The notes below the pieces were generated by a model that saw only the letters and a program-made list of their open reading frames with translations, was not told the origin of the DNA and did no database searches. Shown here in pieces: positions 29,771 to 42,985 of a DNA stretch of 64,000 bases. The position numbers and the translations under genes are program-made. Position 1 is the stretch's first letter. Every line of letters starts with the position of its first letter. Source of the DNA: a virus (Duplodnaviria; Caudoviricetes); the IMG/VR virus record IMGVR_UViG_3300028888_000122, positions 7,976 to 71,975 of that record; one strand, 5' to 3'.

Positions 29771-30262
29771 ATGTTTCAGAATCTTAGACAAGGCAACACA
29801 CTTTATGTAATCGACAAGTCAGGTGTTCCTTCGCTGAAAATAGGGCAAGTGATAAGCGTCGGCAACCCCTCACCAGTGTACAACACAACAACGCCAATAA
29901 CGATGGGTCTGCAGACGAAGACCGAAGTGCTTGTCAGGGCGAAGGTCGATGACAAGGAAGGCGACTTTCCCCACCTGCCGTCCGACCAGAACGTCCACGA
30001 CTACGGCAATATGATCATCACCGACAGCCGTGAGGCGGCGTTGAGCGAGATTGACGCGCTCAAGCAGTTTTCGCAGAACGTCATCGACAGCGTTCCTTTG
30101 CACGAGAAGACCGTTCTCGCCTGTGACGATATAGCCAAATCGCTTAATCCAAGCTATGCGAAGGAGAAAGAGCGTGACGAGGCCATCGGTAAGCTCAACA
30201 ACCGCATGGATAACATCGAGGGAAGCCTCGGCAAGATTTTGAAACTATTAAACGACAAATAA
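29771..30262 (+). CDS. Hypothetical protein with a C-terminal coiled coil
   Basis: Clean ORF in cassette. Confidence 0.65.
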   Translation: MFQNLRQGNTLYVIDKSGVPSLKIGQVISVGNPSPVYNTTTPITMGLQTKTEVLVRAKVDDKEGDFPHLPSDQNVHDYGNMIITDSREAALSEIDALKQFSQNVIDSVPLHEKTVLACDDIAKSLNPSYAKEKERDEAIGKLNNRMDNIEGSLGKILKLLNDK

Positions 30263-30272
30263 AACAGACATC

Positions 30273-30509
30273 ATGGGATACATTTTAGAGTTCAGAGACG
30301 AGATGGAGAAAGAAGAGCTGATGCAGAAACTGCACACAGCGAAGAAAGCCGTATGTGAAGCCATGGAAGCCATGGAAGATGCCGACGGTATGCAGGAGCG
30401 TGGCCGCTACCGCGGTAACTACCGCGACCGCATGGAGACCCGCAGGGGCATGCGTATGCGCGACGACATGGACGACATGGAGTACCGCAACGGACGCTAC
30501 GGCTATTAA
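30273..30509 (+). CDS. Small Met/Arg/Asp-rich protein
   Basis: Clean ORF followed by a terminator. Confidence 0.6.
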   Translation: MGYILEFRDEMEKEELMQKLHTAKKAVCEAMEAMEDADGMQERGRYRGNYRDRMETRRGMRMRDDMDDMEYRNGRYGY

Positions 30510-30524
30510 TACGACATTTTAATC

Positions 30525-30552
30525 GGGCGGTGGCAAAAACTACCGCCCTTTT
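30525..30552 (+). terminator. Intrinsic terminator
   Basis: GGGCGGTGG/CTACCGCCC stem plus TTTT. Confidence 0.65.
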
Positions 30553-30570
30553 CACTTAAATCTCAATACT

Positions 30571-30966
30571 ATGCAATACTACATCAGTGAAGGAGAGGCC
30601 CAGTACATGGATGCCAACCAGGGCCACTTCAGCAATGCTCTGGCCCAGTGGGCCATATCACGAATGAGGGTGCGTGACGCCGGAGGGAACCTTGTCAAGA
30701 TCAACTCCATCCCATTTGAAGAGGTAGAGAAGACTTTGCAGGATTACGGCATCGGCATAAAGGAAGAGAGCGTTTATGACGCTTGGTACCTTTACAACAT
30801 GTGCCTTGCCGACTACCGCCGTTCACTCCCCGAGCGCAATGACATCGCGATGTACATCGACGAGACCATCAACGACCCAGACTGTGACCCGACGGCTGTT
30901 TTGGCCTGTTTCCGTGCCAAAATGGACACTATGCGTGTGCCTATACATTGGGAGCGCTATCTATGA
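30571..30966 (+). CDS. Hypothetical protein
   Basis: Clean ORF; YMDANQGHFS motif. Confidence 0.6.
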   Translation: MQYYISEGEAQYMDANQGHFSNALAQWAISRMRVRDAGGNLVKINSIPFEEVEKTLQDYGIGIKEESVYDAWYLYNMCLADYRRSLPERNDIAMYIDETINDPDCDPTAVLACFRAKMDTMRVPIHWERYL

Positions 30967-31352
30967 AGAAGCACTATATCGACATCGTCGGCAGGTGGGC
31001 ATTCATCTTCGCCTATGACATCGAAGAGAACAACCTCGGAGAAGTCGGCGACTGGCTTGAAGCTTTAGGCGCTTCAAGGAGAGACATCATCCGTTCTCAG
31101 CGCGTATTATCTGGCCTTAATACAGGATTTACGTTCAGCAGCGACAGCCTGCGGATGAGCGTGATGTGTATAAGCAACGCCACGGACGTAGAACAATGGT
31201 GGGACACGCTCGACCACGAGATAGACCACTTACAGTACACCATCATGCAATACTACGACGTAGAACCAGGGACAGAAGAAGCCGCATACCTTCAAGGGTA
31301 CATCATGCGCGGTATCGTCAAGGCTCTGCTTTCTGACGGAGTAATGTTCTAA
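30963..31352 (+). CDS. Putative zinc metallopeptidase-like protein
   Basis: HEIDH (HExxH) followed by EEAAY; start moved to the ATGA overlap at 30963. Confidence 0.55.
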   Translation: MKKHYIDIVGRWAFIFAYDIEENNLGEVGDWLEALGASRRDIIRSQRVLSGLNTGFTFSSDSLRMSVMCISNATDVEQWWDTLDHEIDHLQYTIMQYYDVEPGTEEAAYLQGYIMRGIVKALLSDGVMF

Positions 31353-32547
31353 TAACTTTCTCGTTGGCCTTGTCAACAGGTTTCCACGACTTCTTGATAT
31401 AGATGTCTGTGACAGCCGTTGCGGGGTCAACGTGGTTTAAGGCCAGGTGCACCGTCCACTTGTCTATGCCGCAGTCGTTGACCGCTATCGTCGCCCACGA
31501 GTGCCGCGCCGCATAGAACGTCAGTTCAGGTTCCCCTATCCTCTTCCCTACAATATCCAGTCCTTTGTTGATCGCAGCATTGAACGTACCTTTGTCGGCA
31601 TACATTCGCCAAAAGCGGAACACATGACCACTCCCTTTTTTGTCACGGTATTTTTCAAAAAGTGACATAGCCACTTTCGGCACCTTTACGCTCATTAACG
31701 CATTGTCGCTGCGCCTGTTACGCGTCTTCTGCCGTTCGTATATTATCCTTCCGTCTTTATATTCGCTGCACGAAAACAGGTCTGCGGAGTTCATCCCGAC
31801 AAGAAAGAACGACAACATAAACACGTCTTTAGCAAGGTTGTATCTCGCGCCTTTAGTGCCTTCTTTCAACGGCTCGTCTTTCATTTCAAATATTGACATG
31901 ATTTGACTTATCTCAAGCGCTCTTTTCTTGGTCGGTTCATATTTGGCCACATCAATGCCCGTGAATGGATTGAATGGTATGATATCAGCGTCTATGTTGT
32001 ACTCCTTCATCAGCGTATTGTATGCGGCTTGCAGTTGCGCTTTGTAGAGTGACGGCGCACGATTGCCTGAGATTGACATAAACGCGTCTCTCACGCGTTT
32101 TCTCGTTAAAGCCGATAAAGGTATCACATCGCTGCCGAAAGCCGCGCAGAACGCATTTATGGCCGTTATTCGGTTTGTCGCCGTGCCAGCGTGCCCGGCA
32201 AGTTTCATCTTCTCAGCCTCTCGTTTGACGTAAGCAACGAAATCCGTTGTCATAATGTCGTCTTTACCCCTCGCGTTGATGAGCGCAACGACGCTCTTTA
32301 CGTCAATGCCACGCAGATCGTTTTCATCGCAGATGCGCATATAGCGCCTGATGATAGCATCGGATTTGTCGAGAACACGGTAGTCGCTTATGACTGTTCC
32401 AGATTTTTTGCTTTTGCGCACATATTGCTTGCTTACATAGATGTCGGTGGGTATGTACGCCACACCCCTGGAATGGATCACACGGATGCGGATTGAGTAT
32501 GTGTTGTCGGCCCTTAATCGACCGATTGTCGCTTTGAAAGTAGCCAT
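31318..32547 (-). CDS. int: Integrase (tyrosine recombinase)
   Basis: N-terminal arm-binding domain, GMNSAD, FYAARHSWAT, LNH, catalytic Y in TDIYI; adjacent attP. Confidence 0.92.
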   Translation of the reverse strand: MATFKATIGRLRADNTYSIRIRVIHSRGVAYIPTDIYVSKQYVRKSKKSGTVISDYRVLDKSDAIIRRYMRICDENDLRGIDVKSVVALINARGKDDIMTTDFVAYVKREAEKMKLAGHAGTATNRITAINAFCAAFGSDVIPLSALTRKRVRDAFMSISGNRAPSLYKAQLQAAYNTLMKEYNIDADIIPFNPFTGIDVAKYEPTKKRALEISQIMSIFEMKDEPLKEGTKGARYNLAKDVFMLSFFLVGMNSADLFSCSEYKDGRIIYERQKTRNRRSDNALMSVKVPKVAMSLFEKYRDKKGSGHVFRFWRMYADKGTFNAAINKGLDIVGKRIGEPELTFYAARHSWATIAVNDCGIDKWTVHLALNHVDPATAVTDIYIKKSWKPVDKANEKVIRTLLRQKAEP

Positions 32548-32573
32548 TTCGCGTTAAATAATATTAAAAATAA

Positions 32574-32593
32574 TGTGTCAACTATTTGTAAAC
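32574..32593 (+). repeat. Arm-type integrase site, copy 1 (TGTGTCAACTATTTGTAAAC)
   Basis: Exact 20-bp direct repeat with 32807-32826, flanking the core. Confidence 0.75.
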
Positions 32594-32712
32594 ATTTGTC
32601 AACATTCTACATCAAAAAGTGTTGTAAAGTGCGCACAAAAATGCGATGAACGAATAAAAAATTAGGTTGATAACCCATTGAGTTTCAACCTAATTCGCTG
32701 TGTTTCAAGAGT

Positions 32713-32755
32713 GAGCGGCAGACGGGACTCGGACCCGCGGCCCTCAGCTTGGGAA
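32713..32755 (-). other. attP core: 3' half of tRNA-Gly(CCC)
   Basis: Minus strand TTCCCAAGCTGAGGGCCGCGGGTCCGAGTCCCGTCTGCCGCTC = anticodon loop to acceptor stem; no 5' half present. Confidence 0.85.
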
Positions 32756-32806
32756 ACTCAAGTGGTGTGATTGTCAGTCAGTTAGTTACATAATTTTTTC
32801 AATTTT

Positions 32807-32826
32807 TGTGTCAACTATTTGTAAAC
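32807..32826 (+). repeat. Arm-type integrase site, copy 2
   Basis: Exact repeat of 32574-32593. Confidence 0.75.
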
Positions 32827-32854
32827 TTTTCCGTGTTAATGAAAGTGAATGCGA

Positions 32855-33032
32855 TTTGGTGTTCGGCTTATAGCCGTAGTAATTTTGCTATCGCTTATCT
32901 TTGGGGAGGGAGAGGCGAGAGGATGACTACACAAGACATTATGAGTTGCCTGAAAAGGGTAAAACAATAGCGGCTTGCTGGGGTGTTCTCTCTTCCCTCC
33001 CCTGGAAAGATAAGAAGGCAAGCTGCTTTTTT
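32855..33032 (+). ncRNA. Small structured transcription unit with a 15-codon mini-ORF (32923-32970)
   Basis: TTTG-21nt-TAATTTTG promoter; long complementary arms 32894-32914/32989-33014; stem 32970-32978/33018-33026 plus T6. Confidence 0.45.
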
Positions 33033-33407
33033 ATGCACTTGCGCAATCTTTGACTTACTGAATTAGGGTTCTATCCAGTACCACCCTGCCATACACGAGA
33101 TGGTGAGATAAAAGGTACAGAAGACCTGTTGGTATTATACCATTTCCGAGTAATGTCCTGCTCTGACCCACACCCTGTCAACAGGCGACTCATGATATGG
33201 CCCTTCAAGGGATTGAGAGGCACTCGGCAATGGCGAAACAAACCGACGCAAGGAGACGCGGATACCGAACGGGCCGTCGAAGGGAACAGTCTCTGGAATG
33301 AGGCTACGCTGCAATGACGTAAAAGTTCGCTTCGCAAACTCTCATAGTATATAATAATATATTATGAGGAGAAGGGGGTGATATGCCCTTATATGAAGAA
33401 AAGCGTT

Positions 33408-34028
33408 TTATTCCAGAACAAGCCCCGCCAAAACTTTCCAGATTCCGCGAATTGAAGAAAGCGGCACTTCGAACGGCACATACTTCTTGTTGTCGTTCAA
33501 AGAGTGGCACGTCACCTTTTCGGGCGAAGAGCCTGGTCTCAGTTCCTTGACAATAGCGCCGTTCACCGTGTCGATGACATAAACTTTGCCCCATTCGATG
33601 AAATCCGGGTCGTCAACGCGCCGGCAGAACAGCCTTGAGCCGCTCGGGTATTTCGGAGCCATGCTGTCCCCGCTCACCTCGATGGCCATTTCAGCGCCTT
33701 TCACGGGCGCGTGAACGCGTTCAAGTGACTTGACCGATGCGGAGTCCAACTGCTCGCTCAAAGCGCCTCCTAACGCGAACATATTGACGATAGGCACATT
33801 ATTATCAAAAGCCGTGTCGTTTTTGAACGGTTCCCCTTTCCCTGTCACAAGCCAGTCTATGTTCAGGTCGGGATACACAGAGGCGACGCCTTTGATTGCC
33901 TCAGACGAAAGATTCTTCACGCTATTGAAGTAAGCGTTACCTTTTCCGATTTTCTTTTCAAGACCGCTGATCGTGTCGCCTTTCATCCGCACGAACTCTT
34001 TAAGTCTTGCTTTTGTCTCGATTCCCAT
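33408..34028 (-). CDS. CI-like repressor with S24 autopeptidase domain
   Basis: N-terminal HTH (ISGLEKKIGKGNAYF; LNIDWLVTGKG); VSGDSMAP catalytic Ser; IVKEL Lys. Confidence 0.9.
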   Translation of the reverse strand: MGIETKARLKEFVRMKGDTISGLEKKIGKGNAYFNSVKNLSSEAIKGVASVYPDLNIDWLVTGKGEPFKNDTAFDNNVPIVNMFALGGALSEQLDSASVKSLERVHAPVKGAEMAIEVSGDSMAPKYPSGSRLFCRRVDDPDFIEWGKVYVIDTVNGAIVKELRPGSSPEKVTCHSLNDNKKYVPFEVPLSSIRGIWKVLAGLVLE

Positions 34029-34040
34029 TTTCGTTTCATT

Positions 34041-34228
34041 TTAGGCTAATACTCTAAATATTTACGGTAGAAAACATCTTGTTTTTCAGTGATTTAACTG
34101 AAACAAGTAAAGTAATCTAAGCGTTAATACGCTGATAATCAAGTAGTCTCAATTGGACTTAATCCAAATTAGGCCATTACCATAATTTTTTCGACAAATT
34201 ATTTGGTGCATTTAGGCATATACCCTAA
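34041..34228 (+). promoter_or_regulatory. Three 17-bp operators (34041-57, 34169-85, 34212-28) and the rightward promoter (TTTG 34202-05, TAATTTTG 34226-33)
   Basis: TTAGGCTAATACTCTAA, TTAGGCCATTACCATAA, TTAGGCATATACCCTAA; the last has perfect TTAGG/CCTAA arms. Confidence 0.75.
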
Positions 34229-34296
34229 TTTTGCATCACCAAACCGATAGTGATAGTCTAACCCACATATCATTTCGGCGACAAATTTATAAAGAA

Positions 34297-34515
34297 ATGT
34301 TGAAATTAGCAAACATAGTGACAAAAAAATATGTGAGTATCAGGGAAACCCTTCTCGCATTACCTCTCAACGATGAGCGATACATCGCCGAGGATGTCAT
34401 TGCGTCAATGGATATCCGCAAGACCGCGAGCAAGCTCAAGAAGCAAGGTCTGGGCGAGTGGAAAGTCCGCAAGCAGCGCGGTGTCAATGTCACGAGCATA
34501 ACGAGGTTGGCATGA
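34297..34515 (+). CDS. Cro-position small DNA-binding protein
   Basis: First gene after the rightward promoter; start reassigned to ATG 34297. Confidence 0.55.
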   Translation: MLKLANIVTKKYVSIRETLLALPLNDERYIAEDVIASMDIRKTASKLKKQGLGEWKVRKQRGVNVTSITRLA

Positions 34516-34769
34516 AAGACGGCGGCAGGTACATAGTTCTCACTCCCGAAGAACTCGACGCATTGCTCGAGAAGGCAGTTGTCAAAGGGATCATGGCCGC
34601 GCGTTCATCACTAATGAGCCGCAGGCAGGCCGAGAAGGAGTATGGCAGAGCCACTATCAACCACCTCATCGAACGAGGCCTTATCGAAGGCCACAGGCAG
34701 GGCGCTGCCTCTAACTCCAAAGTCCTTTTCGGGAGAGAGGAGATAGAACGCGCCATTCTCAAGGGCTGA
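34512..34769 (+). CDS. Excisionase-like winged-helix protein
   Basis: MSRRQAEKEYGRATINHLIERGLI...VLFGREEIE; ATGA overlap. Confidence 0.55.
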   Translation: MKDGGRYIVLTPEELDALLEKAVVKGIMAARSSLMSRRQAEKEYGRATINHLIERGLIEGHRQGAASNSKVLFGREEIERAILKG

Positions 34770-34984
34770 CGGTCAGCCAACGTGACAGACGTGCGGGGTC
34801 ACGATAATAAACCCGCTAATCCAGTAACGCCCGCGAGAGGCGACTGGCGCAGGCCTCAAATAGAGGCTGAGCGAAGATAAAGCACCCGACATAAGCAGAT
34901 GCCAGCGGTGATCATCCCGAAAGAAGTAGGGGTGTAGCGGTTGAGAGCGGAAGGGCATAAGTAAGGACTTATTATGCTATTACA

Positions 34985-35019
34985 CGCACATGGGGGTTCG
35001 ACTCCCGCATGTGCGGCAA
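34985..35019 (+). ncRNA. tRNA minihelix mimic
   Basis: 12-position stem CGCACATGGGGG/CCCGCATGTGCG (one G-G mismatch) with T-loop TTCGACT, then GCAA. Confidence 0.5.
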
Positions 35020-35029
35020 ACAAAGGAGA

Positions 35030-35175
35030 TTTTTTAATTTCGTTTCATTTTGAAATTCATGGTAGTAATCTTAAAATTAGGTTTTGCCGCCTTGTCGTGA
35101 GACACAGCGGCTGATTGTAGGACAACATCCATAATTCAATGATTGCAATAGTCTTGTCGTGAGACACGGCTATTA
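35030..35175 (+). ncRNA. Two tandem modules: antisense-start-codon tract plus GTGA-loop hairpin
   Basis: Exact repeat CTTGTCGTGAGACAC at 35091-35105 and 35153-35167, each closed by a stem and preceded by a CAT-containing AT-rich tract. Confidence 0.5.
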
Positions 35176-35213
35176 TTTATGAAAACATTTTATTAACAAC
35201 AATATATTATTAT

Positions 35214-35789
35214 ATGGCAGAAACAAAGACAAAGACCGCCTCGTTGCTGCAGAAGCTCATGTTTATCCAACAGGAACTTGTTGCGACGAAAGGCAGAGAA
35301 AACAAGTTCGGCGGATTCATGTTCCGTAGCGTTGAGGACATTCTCGCTGCCGTGAAACCGCTATTGAAAGAGCGTGGCCTCGTTCTTCTTCTCAACGACA
35401 AAGTTGAGATGGTAGGCGAACGCTTTTACATGCACTCGATTGCCACGGTTACAGACGGAAGCGAGTCAATCACGGCAGACGGCTGGGCCAGAGAGCCCGA
35501 GCACAAGACCAAGAGCGACGACGCACAGGTGACCGGCATGTCGAGTTCCTATGCCCGCAAGTATGCCCTGTGTGGCTTGTTTATTATCGACAACACCGAC
35601 AACAAGGACTACGACATGCTCGACAACAGCAAGGAAGGTGTAGAAGACCCGCTCGCGGCGCAGATCAAGAGTGCCAAGAGTGTTGACGAACTCGCCACCA
35701 TCTGGAAGGCCAACCCCTCCATCACAGGTGACCAGACTTACAAGGAAATGTTCTCACAACGCAAACACGAACTGCAAGATGGACATTAA
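35214..35789 (+). CDS. erf: ERF-family single-strand annealing protein
   Basis: AQVTGMSSSYARKYALCGLF signature. Confidence 0.88.
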   Translation: MAETKTKTASLLQKLMFIQQELVATKGRENKFGGFMFRSVEDILAAVKPLLKERGLVLLLNDKVEMVGERFYMHSIATVTDGSESITADGWAREPEHKTKSDDAQVTGMSSSYARKYALCGLFIIDNTDNKDYDMLDNSKEGVEDPLAAQIKSAKSVDELATIWKANPSITGDQTYKEMFSQRKHELQDGH

Positions 35790-36702
35790 GTTGAACCCGA
35801 GCGGTGTCGTGTTCGACGAGCACAGGCACCTGTATTCCCTTAACGGGAAACCATTGAAGGGCATCACCGGCATGATTGGCCGCCAGTTGTTCCCTGACAA
35901 GTATGCTGACATTCCGCAGCACATCCTTGACAAAGCCGCAGAGTACGGTTCATCGGTGCACAGCACGATAGAGTTGTGCGACTCCCTTGGAGACCACGAC
36001 AATGCCGACCCGATTTACCAGGCATACCGCTCACTACTCTTTAGCGAAGGCCTCACGGTTATCGCCAACGAGTACATCGTCACCGACTATGAGCACTTCG
36101 CCTCTCCTATTGATGTCGTTGCGCATGACAAGGACGGCAACATCGCCATCATCGACATCAAGACCACGAGCAAGCATGACGGGGAATACGTGTCATGGCA
36201 GGGCAGTGTGTTGAAGAAACTGTTCTGCATCACCAACCCGCACCTCGCCGACAAGGTCAAGAGCGTCTATACTGTATGGCTCCCGAAGGTCATGTACGGC
36301 AAGCCCAGCATCTTCAAGGAGTGGCTGCGTGACGAGAGCGATGTCGATGAGCTCCTCAAGGCCGAGATTGAGCACCGCAAAGTATCCCTCGTGCCCAAAG
36401 AGAGCAACAACGCGTTGTCTCTTACCGATGACGCCATTGCCGAGTTCGCCAACATCGAGAGGCAGCTTGCCGAGGCCAAAGAGCGCAGTAAAGAGATGCG
36501 TGACGGCCTGTTGCTGGCGATGAAGGAGAACGGAGTAAAGTCGTTCAAGTGCGACCGTTTCATGCTGACCCGCGTCATACCGAGCGGAGAACCCGCCTAC
36601 ACGCTCGACACCGAGCGCTTAAAGGACGAGCATCCCGAAATTTGGGAAGAGTACAAGAAAGAGAAGAAACAAAGCGAATCATTACGTATTAAACTTTATT
36701 GA
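35779..36702 (+). CDS. PD-(D/E)xK exonuclease-like protein
   Basis: ASPIDVV...IIDIKTT motif; start reassigned to ATG 35779. Confidence 0.75.
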   Translation: MDIKLNPSGVVFDEHRHLYSLNGKPLKGITGMIGRQLFPDKYADIPQHILDKAAEYGSSVHSTIELCDSLGDHDNADPIYQAYRSLLFSEGLTVIANEYIVTDYEHFASPIDVVAHDKDGNIAIIDIKTTSKHDGEYVSWQGSVLKKLFCITNPHLADKVKSVYTVWLPKVMYGKPSIFKEWLRDESDVDELLKAEIEHRKVSLVPKESNNALSLTDDAIAEFANIERQLAEAKERSKEMRDGLLLAMKENGVKSFKCDRFMLTRVIPSGEPAYTLDTERLKDEHPEIWEEYKKEKKQSESLRIKLY

Positions 36703-36703
36703 T

Positions 36704-37117
36704 ATGGAAATCAAAGGAACATTAAAGAAAGTATGCCCTGTTGAGAATATCCAGGGCAAGACAGGTAACACATTCCAGAAGCGCGTCATCGTAGTCGATT
36801 GTTCAAGCGTTGACGATGTGACTGGTGAGATCAGAGAGAACATCCTCGCCTTCGAGACGAGCGGAAGGTTCGTCAACGACTACGACCGTTATGTCGGCAT
36901 GGAAGGCAAGGAAGTCACCGTGCGTTTCGGTATCAGCGGGCGAAGTTGGACGAACAGCGACGGCACCGAGAAGTATATGACGACATTGCGTCTCATCGGT
37001 CTCGTTATGCCCGACGCCATCCCCGCCGCCCCAAGTCCTCAACCAGCTCCACAGCCAGCACCACAGCCAAAGCCTGATTTCAATCAGACGCAGCAAGGGG
37101 ATGGGCTCCCATTTTAG
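36704..37117 (+). CDS. Single-stranded DNA-binding protein (DUF3127-like)
   Basis: OB-like N-terminus; PAPQ linker; acidic GDGLPF tail. Confidence 0.8.
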   Translation: MEIKGTLKKVCPVENIQGKTGNTFQKRVIVVDCSSVDDVTGEIRENILAFETSGRFVNDYDRYVGMEGKEVTVRFGISGRSWTNSDGTEKYMTTLRLIGLVMPDAIPAAPSPQPAPQPAPQPKPDFNQTQQGDGLPF

Positions 37118-37134
37118 CAACTAACTGATAACCA

Positions 37135-37548
37135 ATGCGTTACAATCTCAGCGATGAGCGGCAGGCGGGAAAGGCAAAGACCTATCTCGCCGCCCTCATC
37201 AAAAAGGGCGCCACATCGGTAGAGATCACCGAAAAGCGCAGAAGGACGCTCACGCAGAACGGGTTGTTCCACCTGTGGATCAAGTGTTTCGCCGACAGTA
37301 TCGGCGAGGCCAGCCCGGAGCGTTGCAAGGTCTGGGTCAAGCGGGCCTTGTTGGGGCAGCACGAAGAAGTCAATCCGCTCACGGGAAACGTCGAGAGTTT
37401 TGACTACGAGACGCACCTGTTCAGCGTTGAGCAGATGACCGACCTGCTTCATAAGTTCAAGGCATGGGCGCAGACCGAGTTCGAGTGCCGCTTGCCCGAA
37501 CCCGACGAATTGGGGTTTGAACAGATGTTTGACACTTATATCGAGTAA
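37135..37548 (+). CDS. NinB/YbcN-like recombination protein
   Basis: RRTLTQNGLFHLW motif. Confidence 0.7.
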   Translation: MRYNLSDERQAGKAKTYLAALIKKGATSVEITEKRRRTLTQNGLFHLWIKCFADSIGEASPERCKVWVKRALLGQHEEVNPLTGNVESFDYETHLFSVEQMTDLLHKFKAWAQTEFECRLPEPDELGFEQMFDTYIE

Positions 37549-37552
37549 TGTG

Positions 37553-37756
37553 ATGGACTTCGAGTATATCTTGAACACCATTAATGTCCTTATGGAGCAA
37601 CGCAAAGACAAGGTTCCTAACGGGGTGCCGTACAAAGAGTTGCTTGATGTTGTTCACGAGGACTTGAAGATGCTGTTGAACGAGCTTGTAACGGAAGGCA
37701 AGCTAAGGTTCAACATCGACATCAACAAACAACCTATATTCTATATCAACGAGTAA
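37553..37756 (+). CDS. Small winged-helix hypothetical protein
   Basis: Coupled ORF; start reassigned. Confidence 0.5.
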   Translation: MDFEYILNTINVLMEQRKDKVPNGVPYKELLDVVHEDLKMLLNELVTEGKLRFNIDINKQPIFYINE

Positions 37757-37758
37757 CG

Positions 37759-38391
37759 ATGTGCAATATTAAGGAAATGTTCGCAGGGTTGAACGATAAC
37801 GCTTCAAGGCTCTTGCTCTACATCATCCTTCATTCTGACGAAAACGGCAGCGCAGAGGTGAGTGAGCGGAGCCTTGCGGTCGATTTGGGTATGGGTCGGC
37901 AACAGGTCAGAGCAGCGAAACAGGCGCTACTTGCAACCCAGCGAATAACCCAGTCGGCAACCCACAAAGCAACCCACCTAAAACTTTGTTGTTGTGGCGG
38001 TTGTGGTAAATCAAAAACCACCAAGCAACCCACGAAGCAACCCACCAAATCGCAAAAAGTAGAGGTAGCACCGGAGTGGGTAGCCGTTGAGTTTGTCGGC
38101 CCGTTCCTTGACTGGCTGGAGTACAAGAAAGCGAGGCGCGAGTCGTACAAGACCGACAAATCCCTCAAGGCCTGTTACAGCAAGCTCGTGAAGTTATCCA
38201 ACGGAGACGCCGCCGTTGCCGCTGAAATCGTAGAGCAAAGCATGGCAAACAACTGGCAAGGCCTATTTCCGCTAAAACAAGACTATAACAATGGAACGAC
38301 AAATTGGAGAAATAATGGACGGGATGACGAGCTTGCAGCCCAAGCAGTCAGGATGCGCTCTTACTATCAGGCAGAACGAGATAGCAAATGA
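37759..38391 (+). CDS. Replication initiator-like protein
   Basis: N-terminal wHTH; C-terminal DWLEYKK...QSMANNWQGLF domain. Confidence 0.65.
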   Translation: MCNIKEMFAGLNDNASRLLLYIILHSDENGSAEVSERSLAVDLGMGRQQVRAAKQALLATQRITQSATHKATHLKLCCCGGCGKSKTTKQPTKQPTKSQKVEVAPEWVAVEFVGPFLDWLEYKKARRESYKTDKSLKACYSKLVKLSNGDAAVAAEIVEQSMANNWQGLFPLKQDYNNGTTNWRNNGRDDELAAQAVRMRSYYQAERDSK

Positions 38392-38953
38392 GGTCACGAG
38401 CCGCTATGGTTCGTTTGACAACGTGTTGAGTCTGTTCGCGCCGAAATTCCAATGCACATACACCATTGATGAACACAGGTGCTATTTCGGCACAGCGCCG
38501 AGACTGAGCCACATGCGGTTCGCCTATGGTGAAAGCGCCCCTATTGAGTGGTTGAGTTATCAGATCATCGACCTTAACCGCTTCTCCAACTGCAAGATGA
38601 TGACAGACTATCAAGTCAAGTCGCTCGCACAGGCCATTTTCAAAAACTATTTCTATTTGAAATTAAGCGAGGTGATGTTGTTCTTCAACAAGGTCAAGGC
38701 TGCGGAGTATGGCCAGTTGTTTTTCGGTGCCGTTGACCCGATACCGCTGATGGGGGCGCTGAAGAAATTCGCAGAGGATCGTGCTGAGATAATCCGCAAA
38801 AAGGAAGAGGAAGAAGCCAGAACCGAGAGGGAACGTGACGCCCATCGCCCAGGCATCCTCAAGCCCAACGAGGTGCAGGCGTTGCGAGAGCGGCTTCAAG
38901 CACAGTGGGCAGAAGAAGAAAAGTTAAACCAAAAAAAAGATAACGTAAAATGA
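38291..38953 (+). CDS. Initiator-associated / helicase-loader-like protein
   Basis: Follows the initiator; LKLSEVMLFF...YG motif. Confidence 0.5.
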   Translation: MERQIGEIMDGMTSLQPKQSGCALTIRQNEIANEVTSRYGSFDNVLSLFAPKFQCTYTIDEHRCYFGTAPRLSHMRFAYGESAPIEWLSYQIIDLNRFSNCKMMTDYQVKSLAQAIFKNYFYLKLSEVMLFFNKVKAAEYGQLFFGAVDPIPLMGALKKFAEDRAEIIRKKEEEEARTERERDAHRPGILKPNEVQALRERLQAQWAEEEKLNQKKDNVK

Positions 38954-39381
38954 GGTATTTTGAAGTAAAAGTGCGGTATGACCGCAAGAATGAAAACGGA
39001 GCCATCAAGCCCGTTACCGAGACGTATGCGCTCAGCGCGCAGACATTCACCGACGCCGAGGCCGCTATGCACGACATGTCAAGCGAGTTACCCGTCGAAG
39101 GCAACTTTGAAGTGATCGGCGAGAAGATTGCCAACTACGAGCGCTTTCTCCCTACCTTCACCCACGAAGGTGACGAGCCACGCTTCTACGAAGTCAAGTA
39201 TGCGCTTATCTGCATCGACGAGCGCACCGCCAAGGAAATCAAGGATATCCATTATGTGCTTGTCGAGGCGTTCACCGTCGAAGCGGCTACATCCTTGTTC
39301 CTTAAAAACGTATTCGCTGGAGAGCAGGTTGAGCTCGTAAGCGTCAAGAAAACACCGATAGTCGGTGTAAGGATGTTATGA
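38950..39381 (+). CDS. DUF4494-like protein
   Basis: YFEVKVRYD...SAQTFTDAEA motif. Confidence 0.65.
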   Translation: MRYFEVKVRYDRKNENGAIKPVTETYALSAQTFTDAEAAMHDMSSELPVEGNFEVIGEKIANYERFLPTFTHEGDEPRFYEVKYALICIDERTAKEIKDIHYVLVEAFTVEAATSLFLKNVFAGEQVELVSVKKTPIVGVRML

Positions 39382-39866
39382 TGCGCGATGTATATGTGGG
39401 TATCGACCCGGGCGCAAAAGGGTTTGTCTGTATTTGGTACGCAAACTACGACGACTTCGAGCATTGCCAGGTTTTCGAAGGCAAGCGCCTCAACCCACTA
39501 CTCATCAAAAAGCTCAAGTATCTTGCCGACTCAGGAGCAAACACCATGGCCGTTGTCGAGCAAGTGCACAGCATGCCGCATCAAGGTGTGGCAAGCACGT
39601 TCTCTTTCGGCACGAACTACGGCAAGATACTTGGCATGCTTGAAGCCATAGGCATCCCCTACTCCACCTGCACCCCAGGCAAATGGCAGAAAGCCATGTG
39701 TGAAGCCGTTGACAAAGCCGCAAATACCAAGTTGACGAGTTACAACGCCGCCCGCCGCCTATTGCCAGATATGGACTTTCGCCGTAGTGAGCGTTGCAAG
39801 ACCTTTGACGACAACAAGGTGGATGCGACACTCATCTGCCTTTATGCTCAAAGAAAACAACTTTAA
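39378..39866 (+). CDS. RuvC-like Holliday junction resolvase
   Basis: VGIDPG, VVEQV, FSFGTNYG, DATLI motifs. Confidence 0.8.
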   Translation: MMRDVYVGIDPGAKGFVCIWYANYDDFEHCQVFEGKRLNPLLIKKLKYLADSGANTMAVVEQVHSMPHQGVASTFSFGTNYGKILGMLEAIGIPYSTCTPGKWQKAMCEAVDKAANTKLTSYNAARRLLPDMDFRRSERCKTFDDNKVDATLICLYAQRKQL

Positions 39867-39891
39867 CTTTTAATTTTAATATTTTACTACA

Positions 39892-40239
39892 ATGGGATTT
39901 AAGATTATCAATTCACGAGAGTATCGAGAAGTATGTGAGCGTGTCGCCTTTTTGGAAAGCGACATCGATGAGAAGAACCGCGAGCTTGAGGCCAAGGACG
40001 AGACCATCAAGCGCCTCAAGAAAGAGATTGTCCAAATACAAGGCTACCTTGAGGAAGTCAAAAACGACCTCAAGAGTACACAGGCAGGTTATAACGATCT
40101 TCTCAAAGAGTTCGAGCAACTCAAGTCCGCCAAGCCAGAGCGTATTGATTTCGTCCCCGACGAGGCTCCTGCAGCCAAGTCAGAGGCCAAAAAGCCCAGG
40201 CCGGCAAGGAAGCCGTCGCCCCGAAAGGGAGACAAGTAA
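39892..40239 (+). CDS. Coiled-coil hypothetical protein
   Basis: Heptad pattern with a basic tail. Confidence 0.6.
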   Translation: MGFKIINSREYREVCERVAFLESDIDEKNRELEAKDETIKRLKKEIVQIQGYLEEVKNDLKSTQAGYNDLLKEFEQLKSAKPERIDFVPDEAPAAKSEAKKPRPARKPSPRKGDK

Positions 40240-42835: not shown

Positions 42836-42849
42836 ACAGCACTAAATCA

Positions 42850-42980
42850 AGTTTATAGTTTTGGAATGATTGGTTATTAATTAAATTGTTAATCAGCCCG
42901 TGAGGGTATGTATTGGAGTAATTGTTTTTTCATAGGTTTAAGAATTAATTATCCCTGCTCATGCAGTGATGCACGGCAGG
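42850..42980 (+). ncRNA. Two AT-rich tract plus GTGA-loop hairpin modules
   Basis: CCC-GTGA-GGG near 42898 and CCTGC..TGCA-GTGA-TGCA..GCAGG at about 42954-42980. Confidence 0.45.
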
Positions 42981-42985
42981 TTTAT

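Follow-up and report, generated by a model that had tools for sequence, protein, structure and literature searches.

The window analysed here is a stretch of 64,000 nt that makes up most of a 72-kb IMG/VR virus record, and near-identical DNA is contained in sequencing runs from the gut or rumen of sheep, cattle and goats. Positions 35030-35175 are surrounded by the switch-region layout of a temperate phage (Table 1). An integrase gene and the gene of a cI-like repressor are read leftward, and an early promoter, two small genes, a gene-free stretch and an Erf-type recombinase gene follow to the right of the operators. Past erf, the gene order continues with an exonuclease, SSB, NinB and an O-like replication gene.

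Table 1 Features of the repressor-recombinase region, in window coordinates.
Feature	Position	Strand	Basis or remark
Integrase	31318-32547	minus	
cI-like repressor, S24 peptidase C-terminal domain	33408-34028	minus	Pfam PF00717, PHROG 4 'transcriptional repressor'
cI mRNA leader, -1 to -14 (site A), proposed pairing site	34029-34042	minus	exact direct repeat of 35038-35051
Three 17-bp operator-like sites	34041-34057, 34169-34185, 34212-34228		between cI and early promoter; repeat family
Early rightward promoter, Bacteroidota-type -7 box	34226-34233	plus	motif scan; conserved in L121 and L129
Two small genes (ORF1, ORF2)	34297-34515, 34512-34769		downstream of early promoter
Structured RNA, ~255 nt, GC-rich, ending in a 12-bp T-loop minihelix (34985-35015)	34765-35020	plus	fold z-score -3.05
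Gene-free stretch, 445 nt	34770-35213		last third AT-rich, contains both hairpin units
Anti-cI-leader tract (site D), proposed seed	35038-35051	plus	TTTCGTTTCATTTT, equals 34029-34042
Hairpin 1 (GUGA loop), without U-run	35086-35111	plus	homologous to the single hairpin of L121 and L129
Hairpin 2 (35148-35173) with U-rich tail	35148-35183	plus	flagged by terminator scan
Erf-type recombinase gene, first gene 3' of the hairpins	35214-35789	plus	Pfam PF04404, PHROG 155

We collected relatives of this locus through two of its proteins. The Erf protein led to three metagenome loci, L120 (98% identical) and L121 and L122 (73-74%), and a search with ORF2 found L128 and L129, which are IMG/VR phages with RecT in place of Erf. 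The closest Erf homologues (P0001-P0010) had identities of 69-92%. Beyond L120-L123, locus searches based on Erf returned only Negativicutes-type phages with unrelated upstream regions, and the INPHARED phages yielded nothing by blastn, nor by tblastn with ORF2. All lineages share the order ORF2, structured RNA with its minihelix, spacer, hairpin and recombinase gene; the spacer (40-70 nt) is barely alignable across lineages, and the hairpin lies 35-70 nt from the recombinase gene. In L128 (3143 onward) and L129 (3143-4015), the gene that comes after the module of ORF2, structured RNA and terminator encodes a RecT-type recombinase rather than Erf, an exchange of modules downstream of the terminator, and an extra conserved small hairpin lies between terminator and recombinase gene.

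The cI-like repressor could be aligned with homologues in L121 and L129. A search with the operator pattern matched only the three sites starting at 34041, 34169 and 34212 within 3 mismatches. The L121 operators (1915-2142) keep the spacing of 128 and 43 nt with half-sites that are lineage-specific, and the N-terminal domains of cI diverge between the window and L121 in proteins that are otherwise similar, which together suggests that these relatives are heteroimmune. In the motif scan, the early rightward promoter was the sole canonical promoter upstream of the hairpin units, and 35000-35250 contained no canonical promoter box in either orientation, which means that transcription has to read through to reach the recombination genes. 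The promoter scan also found no promoter belonging to erf itself within the 40-nt gap before it. A second Bacteroidota-type promoter (-7 box 34289-34282, minus strand), conserved in L121 and L129, faces the early promoter at a distance of ~50 nt between the operators and ORF1, an arrangement comparable to that of pR and pL in coliphage 186. This minus-strand promoter would give cI a leader of ~245 nt that contains site A.

The structured RNA begins directly after ORF2, and the hairpin-unit region lies directly 3' of it. It is conserved in four lineages, with both sides changed in 9 of 52 predicted pairs, and its 5' part is pseudoknot-like. Searches with Rfam (E cut-off 1 for 30000-40000 and 10 for 34760-35220) and ARAGORN gave nothing meaningful, and pattern searches of IMG/VR for this RNA returned only two contigs, both already found. 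Possible roles are that of a signal for processing or of an element that acts in cis on the terminator downstream. In run X4, one DNA contig passes directly from 34836 to 34980; with 143 nt of the structured RNA missing, it would be a natural variant without the central domain.

Further contigs from X4 match the window through 35020 and then continue into unrelated sequence, so that a mosaic breakpoint falls exactly between minihelix and spacer and the spacer is therefore an exchangeable module. As for RNA, a 943-nt contig from a sheep-rumen metatranscriptome run covers 34278-35221, beginning a short way 3' of the early promoter and ending shortly beyond hairpin 2, and a separate, shallower contig begins at 35224. 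The contig places the stretch in an RNA library, which is a weak hint, as contigs carry no strand, ends or level and DNA carry-over is possible. The RNA run X3 has no cover of cI, a gap that was given no weight.

The sequence-only reading of this DNA had described two tandem units that share an identical hairpin tip, and this description was borne out. A 15-nt core is identical at 35091-35105 and 35153-35167 and forms the tip of a 26-nt hairpin in each unit, built from a 4-bp inner stem with a GUGA loop, a small internal loop and an outer stem of 5-7 bp whose sequence differs between the two copies. The window holds no further copy of the core (searched as a 14- or 15-mer), even when 2 mismatches are allowed, and the 15-mer gave only single chance matches in unrelated contigs of IMG/VR. 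When hairpin 1 was compared with the hairpins of L121 and L129, the alignment was ungapped (4 copies) with 95% of cells paired, and both sides had changed in 5 of 10 pairs, a count reached by 0 of 500 shuffles. In L121 the loop is GCGA and the inner stem is compensated, so that the GNRA loop is kept, and L129 has the same tip sequence as both window copies on a different outer stem.

In both L121 and L129 a U-run stands directly 3' of the hairpin, just before the recombinase gene, and because of this arrangement we take the hairpin to behave as a terminator. L128 has an unrelated hairpin with a U-run at the equivalent place. The second unit, hairpin 2, is absent from L121, L128 and L129. Within the window the U-run is weak after hairpin 2 and missing after hairpin 1, which has lost the one present in its relatives; hairpin 2 with its U-rich tail is likely the terminator in the window phage. 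The hairpins are thus real and structurally conserved, and ordinary in kind: the most likely reading is that they end an early non-coding RNA as leaky intrinsic terminators and do not serve as the handle of a guide RNA, and their conserved tip leaves room for a role in protein or RNA recognition. A third hairpin, at 42954-42980, likewise consists of an outer stem, an internal loop and a 4-bp inner stem with a GUGA loop, followed by a U-rich tail, and sits just before a tRNA-like element; in cluster 2 (42836-42985), to which this hairpin belongs, neither the cluster nor the AT-rich stretch in front of the hairpin gave a match of at least 11 nt to any other place in the window.

Each unit was also said to carry a tract whose reverse complement resembles an A-rich leader plus ATG. 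The reverse complements do read as quoted, but they amount to CAT triplets at chance frequency (4 in 155 nt; 339 other AT-rich stretches average 3.0, and 35% of them have at least 4). No convincing target of these tracts emerged among 147 candidate start regions of the phage: the best duplexes were close to the shuffle null, the best partners of both tracts in the window formed gapped and patchy duplexes, and that of tract 2 was a probably spurious ORF with a GC-rich leader. The proposal that variable guides on a constant scaffold allow programmable silencing is not supported, given a terminator-like hairpin and tracts that are unconserved between lineages.

A different part of the spacer, the 14-nt tract at 35038-35051, had been read as complementary to the cI mRNA directly upstream of its ATG, with the reservation that the match could be chance. 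The complementarity is exact. Since site A adjoins the cI start codon and cI lies on the opposite strand, a plus-strand RNA carrying the tract is complementary to positions -1 to -14 of the cI mRNA. The 14-mer is the longest match of the spacer (35016-35213) to any part of the window. L121 and L122 carry a different 16-mer, TTTCTTTTCAATTAGA, at both homologous sites, 2 nt upstream of the cI start codon and, in the downstream copy, 13 nt after the minihelix. Over the 14 columns shared between the window and L121/L122 there are 3 differences, each of them present at both sites. The tract thus co-varies with the cI leader in a related lineage, and for this reason we do not regard the match as chance. 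The blocks that blastn can align between the window and the L121 lineage stop at 33799 and resume at 34163, and stop again at 35019 and resume at 35195; the flanks of both sites have diverged beyond what blastn can align, and within the spacer the copy of the phage's own cI leader is thus the one piece whose conservation can be recognised.

Predicted duplexes between the spacer and the phage's own cI start region reached -23.9 kcal/mol in the window (p 0.008) and -23.5 kcal/mol in L121 (p 0.002; 1000 dinucleotide shuffles each). Among 147 candidate start regions cI ranked first by duplex energy, with p about 0.05 against shuffles. As a null, we compared the leader with as much as 2.9 kb of divergent operon in 30 loci that have more distant cI homologues: direct matches there reached no more than 7-11 nt per locus, and an inverted-orientation control on the same loci gave 7-11 nt save for one 17-nt match. 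Taken with the concordant change in L121/L122, these results indicate that the 14-nt complementarity is neither chance nor passive duplication. Variant contigs from the DNA runs X4 and X14 differ from the window at 35021, 35072-35091 and 35138-35145, and their complete difference lists leave 35038-35051 unchanged; the tracts flagged as guides carry substitutions and indels in such close variants, whereas the 14-mer at site D does not.

Several other origins of the repeat were considered and rejected. Att sites, a target-site duplication or a substrate for deletion between direct repeats do not fit, since att-type or target-site copies would have diverged independently and these copies changed concordantly; no contigs joining 34029 to 35038 were found. 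A shared family of leaders was also discarded, as other gene starts show no enrichment of the tract's 7-nt core. An 11-nt match to the tract upstream of the window lies inside a coding frame.

In L128 and L129, which keep the upstream RNA and a terminator, the spacer had no complementary stretch in the phage's own repressor leader (p 0.37 and 0.61) or elsewhere in 6.7-13.5 kb of contig sequence. The leader-matching tract, to judge by its distribution among the compared sequences, belongs to one sublineage, and it was seen in two independent lineages only. It is AU-rich and partly enclosed in weak predicted hairpins, with a mean unpaired probability of 0.34 in the window and 0.63 in L121.

The simplest alternative is that the hairpins are plain terminators that end or attenuate the early transcript, and that the 14-mer match has no function. 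The hairpin and U-run of the relatives, the lack of any match in L128 and L129, the AU-richness of the tract and the modest rank statistic of cI by energy alone are all compatible with this reading. We nonetheless consider it unlikely, because it would leave the 3 concordant substitutions, at both L121 sites and inside otherwise unalignable flanks, to coincidence, when the 30 control loci reached at most 11 nt.

Somewhat less probable still is an explanation at the level of DNA, in which both copies are sites, such as an extra operator or a looping or architectural element, that co-evolve with one protein and take no part in RNA pairing. Site A does adjoin the first operator, the 16-mer shared by the two L121 sites takes in one operator half-site, and both the operators and the cI N-terminal domains differ between the two lineages. 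Site D, however, has no operator-like sequence: the operator consensus of this phage, at up to 3 mismatches, matched no site in 35000-35213. Moreover, what the lineages have in common is the leader part and not the operator, the tract is not palindromic, and concordant change at a lineage-variable position fits base pairing better. We therefore favour RNA pairing over a protein site.

The hairpins might instead be protein-binding or cis-acting antitermination signals, like nut/boxB or put, that control read-through into the recombination genes, possibly working together with the upstream structured RNA. A nut site has a short stem with a GNRA-type loop to which an arginine-rich antiterminator binds. 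The tip identical in both copies and in L129 on differing outer stems, the GNRA loop kept in L121, the location between immediate-early genes and promoterless genes, and the third hairpin of the same design at 42954-42980 would all suit such signals. Yet U-runs 3' of the hairpin in the relatives are the anatomy of a terminator, L128 has an unrelated hairpin at this place, and neither Pfam nor PHROGs recognised an N-like protein among the neighbours, which makes this reading improbable. Two programmable guide tracts on a constant hairpin handle that silence host or phage start codons are very improbable: a hairpin tip common to two units and the build of Bacteroides sRNAs, with a 5' seed and a terminator hairpin (PMC11697453), speak for them, and the chance frequency of CAT, the lack of a convincing phage target, the variable, unconserved tracts and the absence of the second unit from all relatives speak against them.

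In the reading that we prefer, pairing between the tract and the cI leader, 35021-35183 would be the 3' module of the non-coding part of an early (lytic) transcript. This transcript would start near 34226-34233 and run through the two small genes and the ~255-nt structured RNA, which closes with the tRNA-like minihelix and gives way to a poorly structured, lineage-specific spacer, and the GNRA-capped hairpins would act as leaky intrinsic terminators ahead of the recombination genes. In the window phage and in L121/L122, a spacer tract of 14-16 nt is an exact complement to the cI mRNA just upstream of its start. We infer that a discrete RNA would be released once the transcript is cleaved at the minihelix and ends at the hairpins, and that when the lytic promoter fires the tract would pair in vivo with the translation-initiation region of cI and block the loading of ribosomes; the resulting block of cI would reinforce lytic commitment in an immunity-specific manner. 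We give about an even chance to a block of cI translation by an immunity-specific antisense tract that the lytic transcript carries. The fuller proposal, an RNA anti-repressor of a temperate Bacteroidales phage in which a released tract pairs with and co-evolves with the leader of its own repressor and adds an immunity-specific layer to the switch, falls slightly short of even. An RNA anti-repressor was also what the sequence-only reading had proposed; the match on which it was built is strengthened by the co-variation with the cI leader, and the RNA action itself is what we infer.

By analogy, the functionally nearest known system is the c4 RNA (Rfam RF01695) of phages P1 and P7, which is processed by RNase P. 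As in c4, an operon transcript contains a tract that can pair with the ribosome-binding region of a gene of the immunity switch, tract and target change in concert between related (heteroimmune) phages, here between two lineages, and a tRNA-like element may be where the RNA is excised from a longer transcript. The sign of the effect would be opposite, however: c4 represses an antirepressor and hence favours lysogeny (PMC12197685), whereas the target here is the leader of an S24-type repressor, which would favour lysis. There is also a single tract here in place of the two loops of c4, and the RF01695 (C4) covariance model had no match in the region searched. The tract further resembles sar of P22 and OOP of lambda as small phage RNAs that base-pair with the mRNA of a lysis-lysogeny regulator. 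Those two are antisense RNAs encoded in cis that overlap their targets, ant or cII (PMC12197685), whereas this tract lies 1 kb away from its target as a direct repeat, with both copies on one DNA strand, and so would act in trans.

Among bacterial RNAs, GibS and FopS of B. thetaiotaomicron (RF04182, RF04319) also act at translation-initiation regions, in a phylum without Shine-Dalgarno pairing (PMC11697453). The architecture resembles that of Bacteroides sRNAs with a 5' seed followed by a terminator (PMC11697453), but the RNA proposed here has no promoter of its own and its seed is unrelated to those of GibS and FopS. Their covariance models had no match in 34760-35220 at E up to 10, and the best match to RF04319 in the whole genome scored 12.7 bits against a cut-off of 56 and was located elsewhere. 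Lambdoid phages have leaky early terminators of the tR1/tL1 type, and the hairpins here correspond to them as terminators within an early operon, placed before recombination and replication genes that are reached by read-through. They differ in that no N/nut system is recognised here, and in that the tip is unusually conserved and duplicated.

The antisense RNAs known from phage lysis-lysogeny switches target an antirepressor, cII or Q (PMC12197685), and in the literature we found no description of a trans-encoded RNA from a lytic operon aimed at the start region of the repressor itself. The anti-cI tract would be a credible new form of phage antisense control, resting on two lineages. The natural variants, with the 14-mer in one and the 16-mer in the other, would provide a ready-made specificity swap. 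If the proposal is true, Bacteroidales phages, whose regulatory logic is little known and in which initiation is not based on Shine-Dalgarno pairing, would have a simple positive feedback towards lytic commitment that is coded in sequence.
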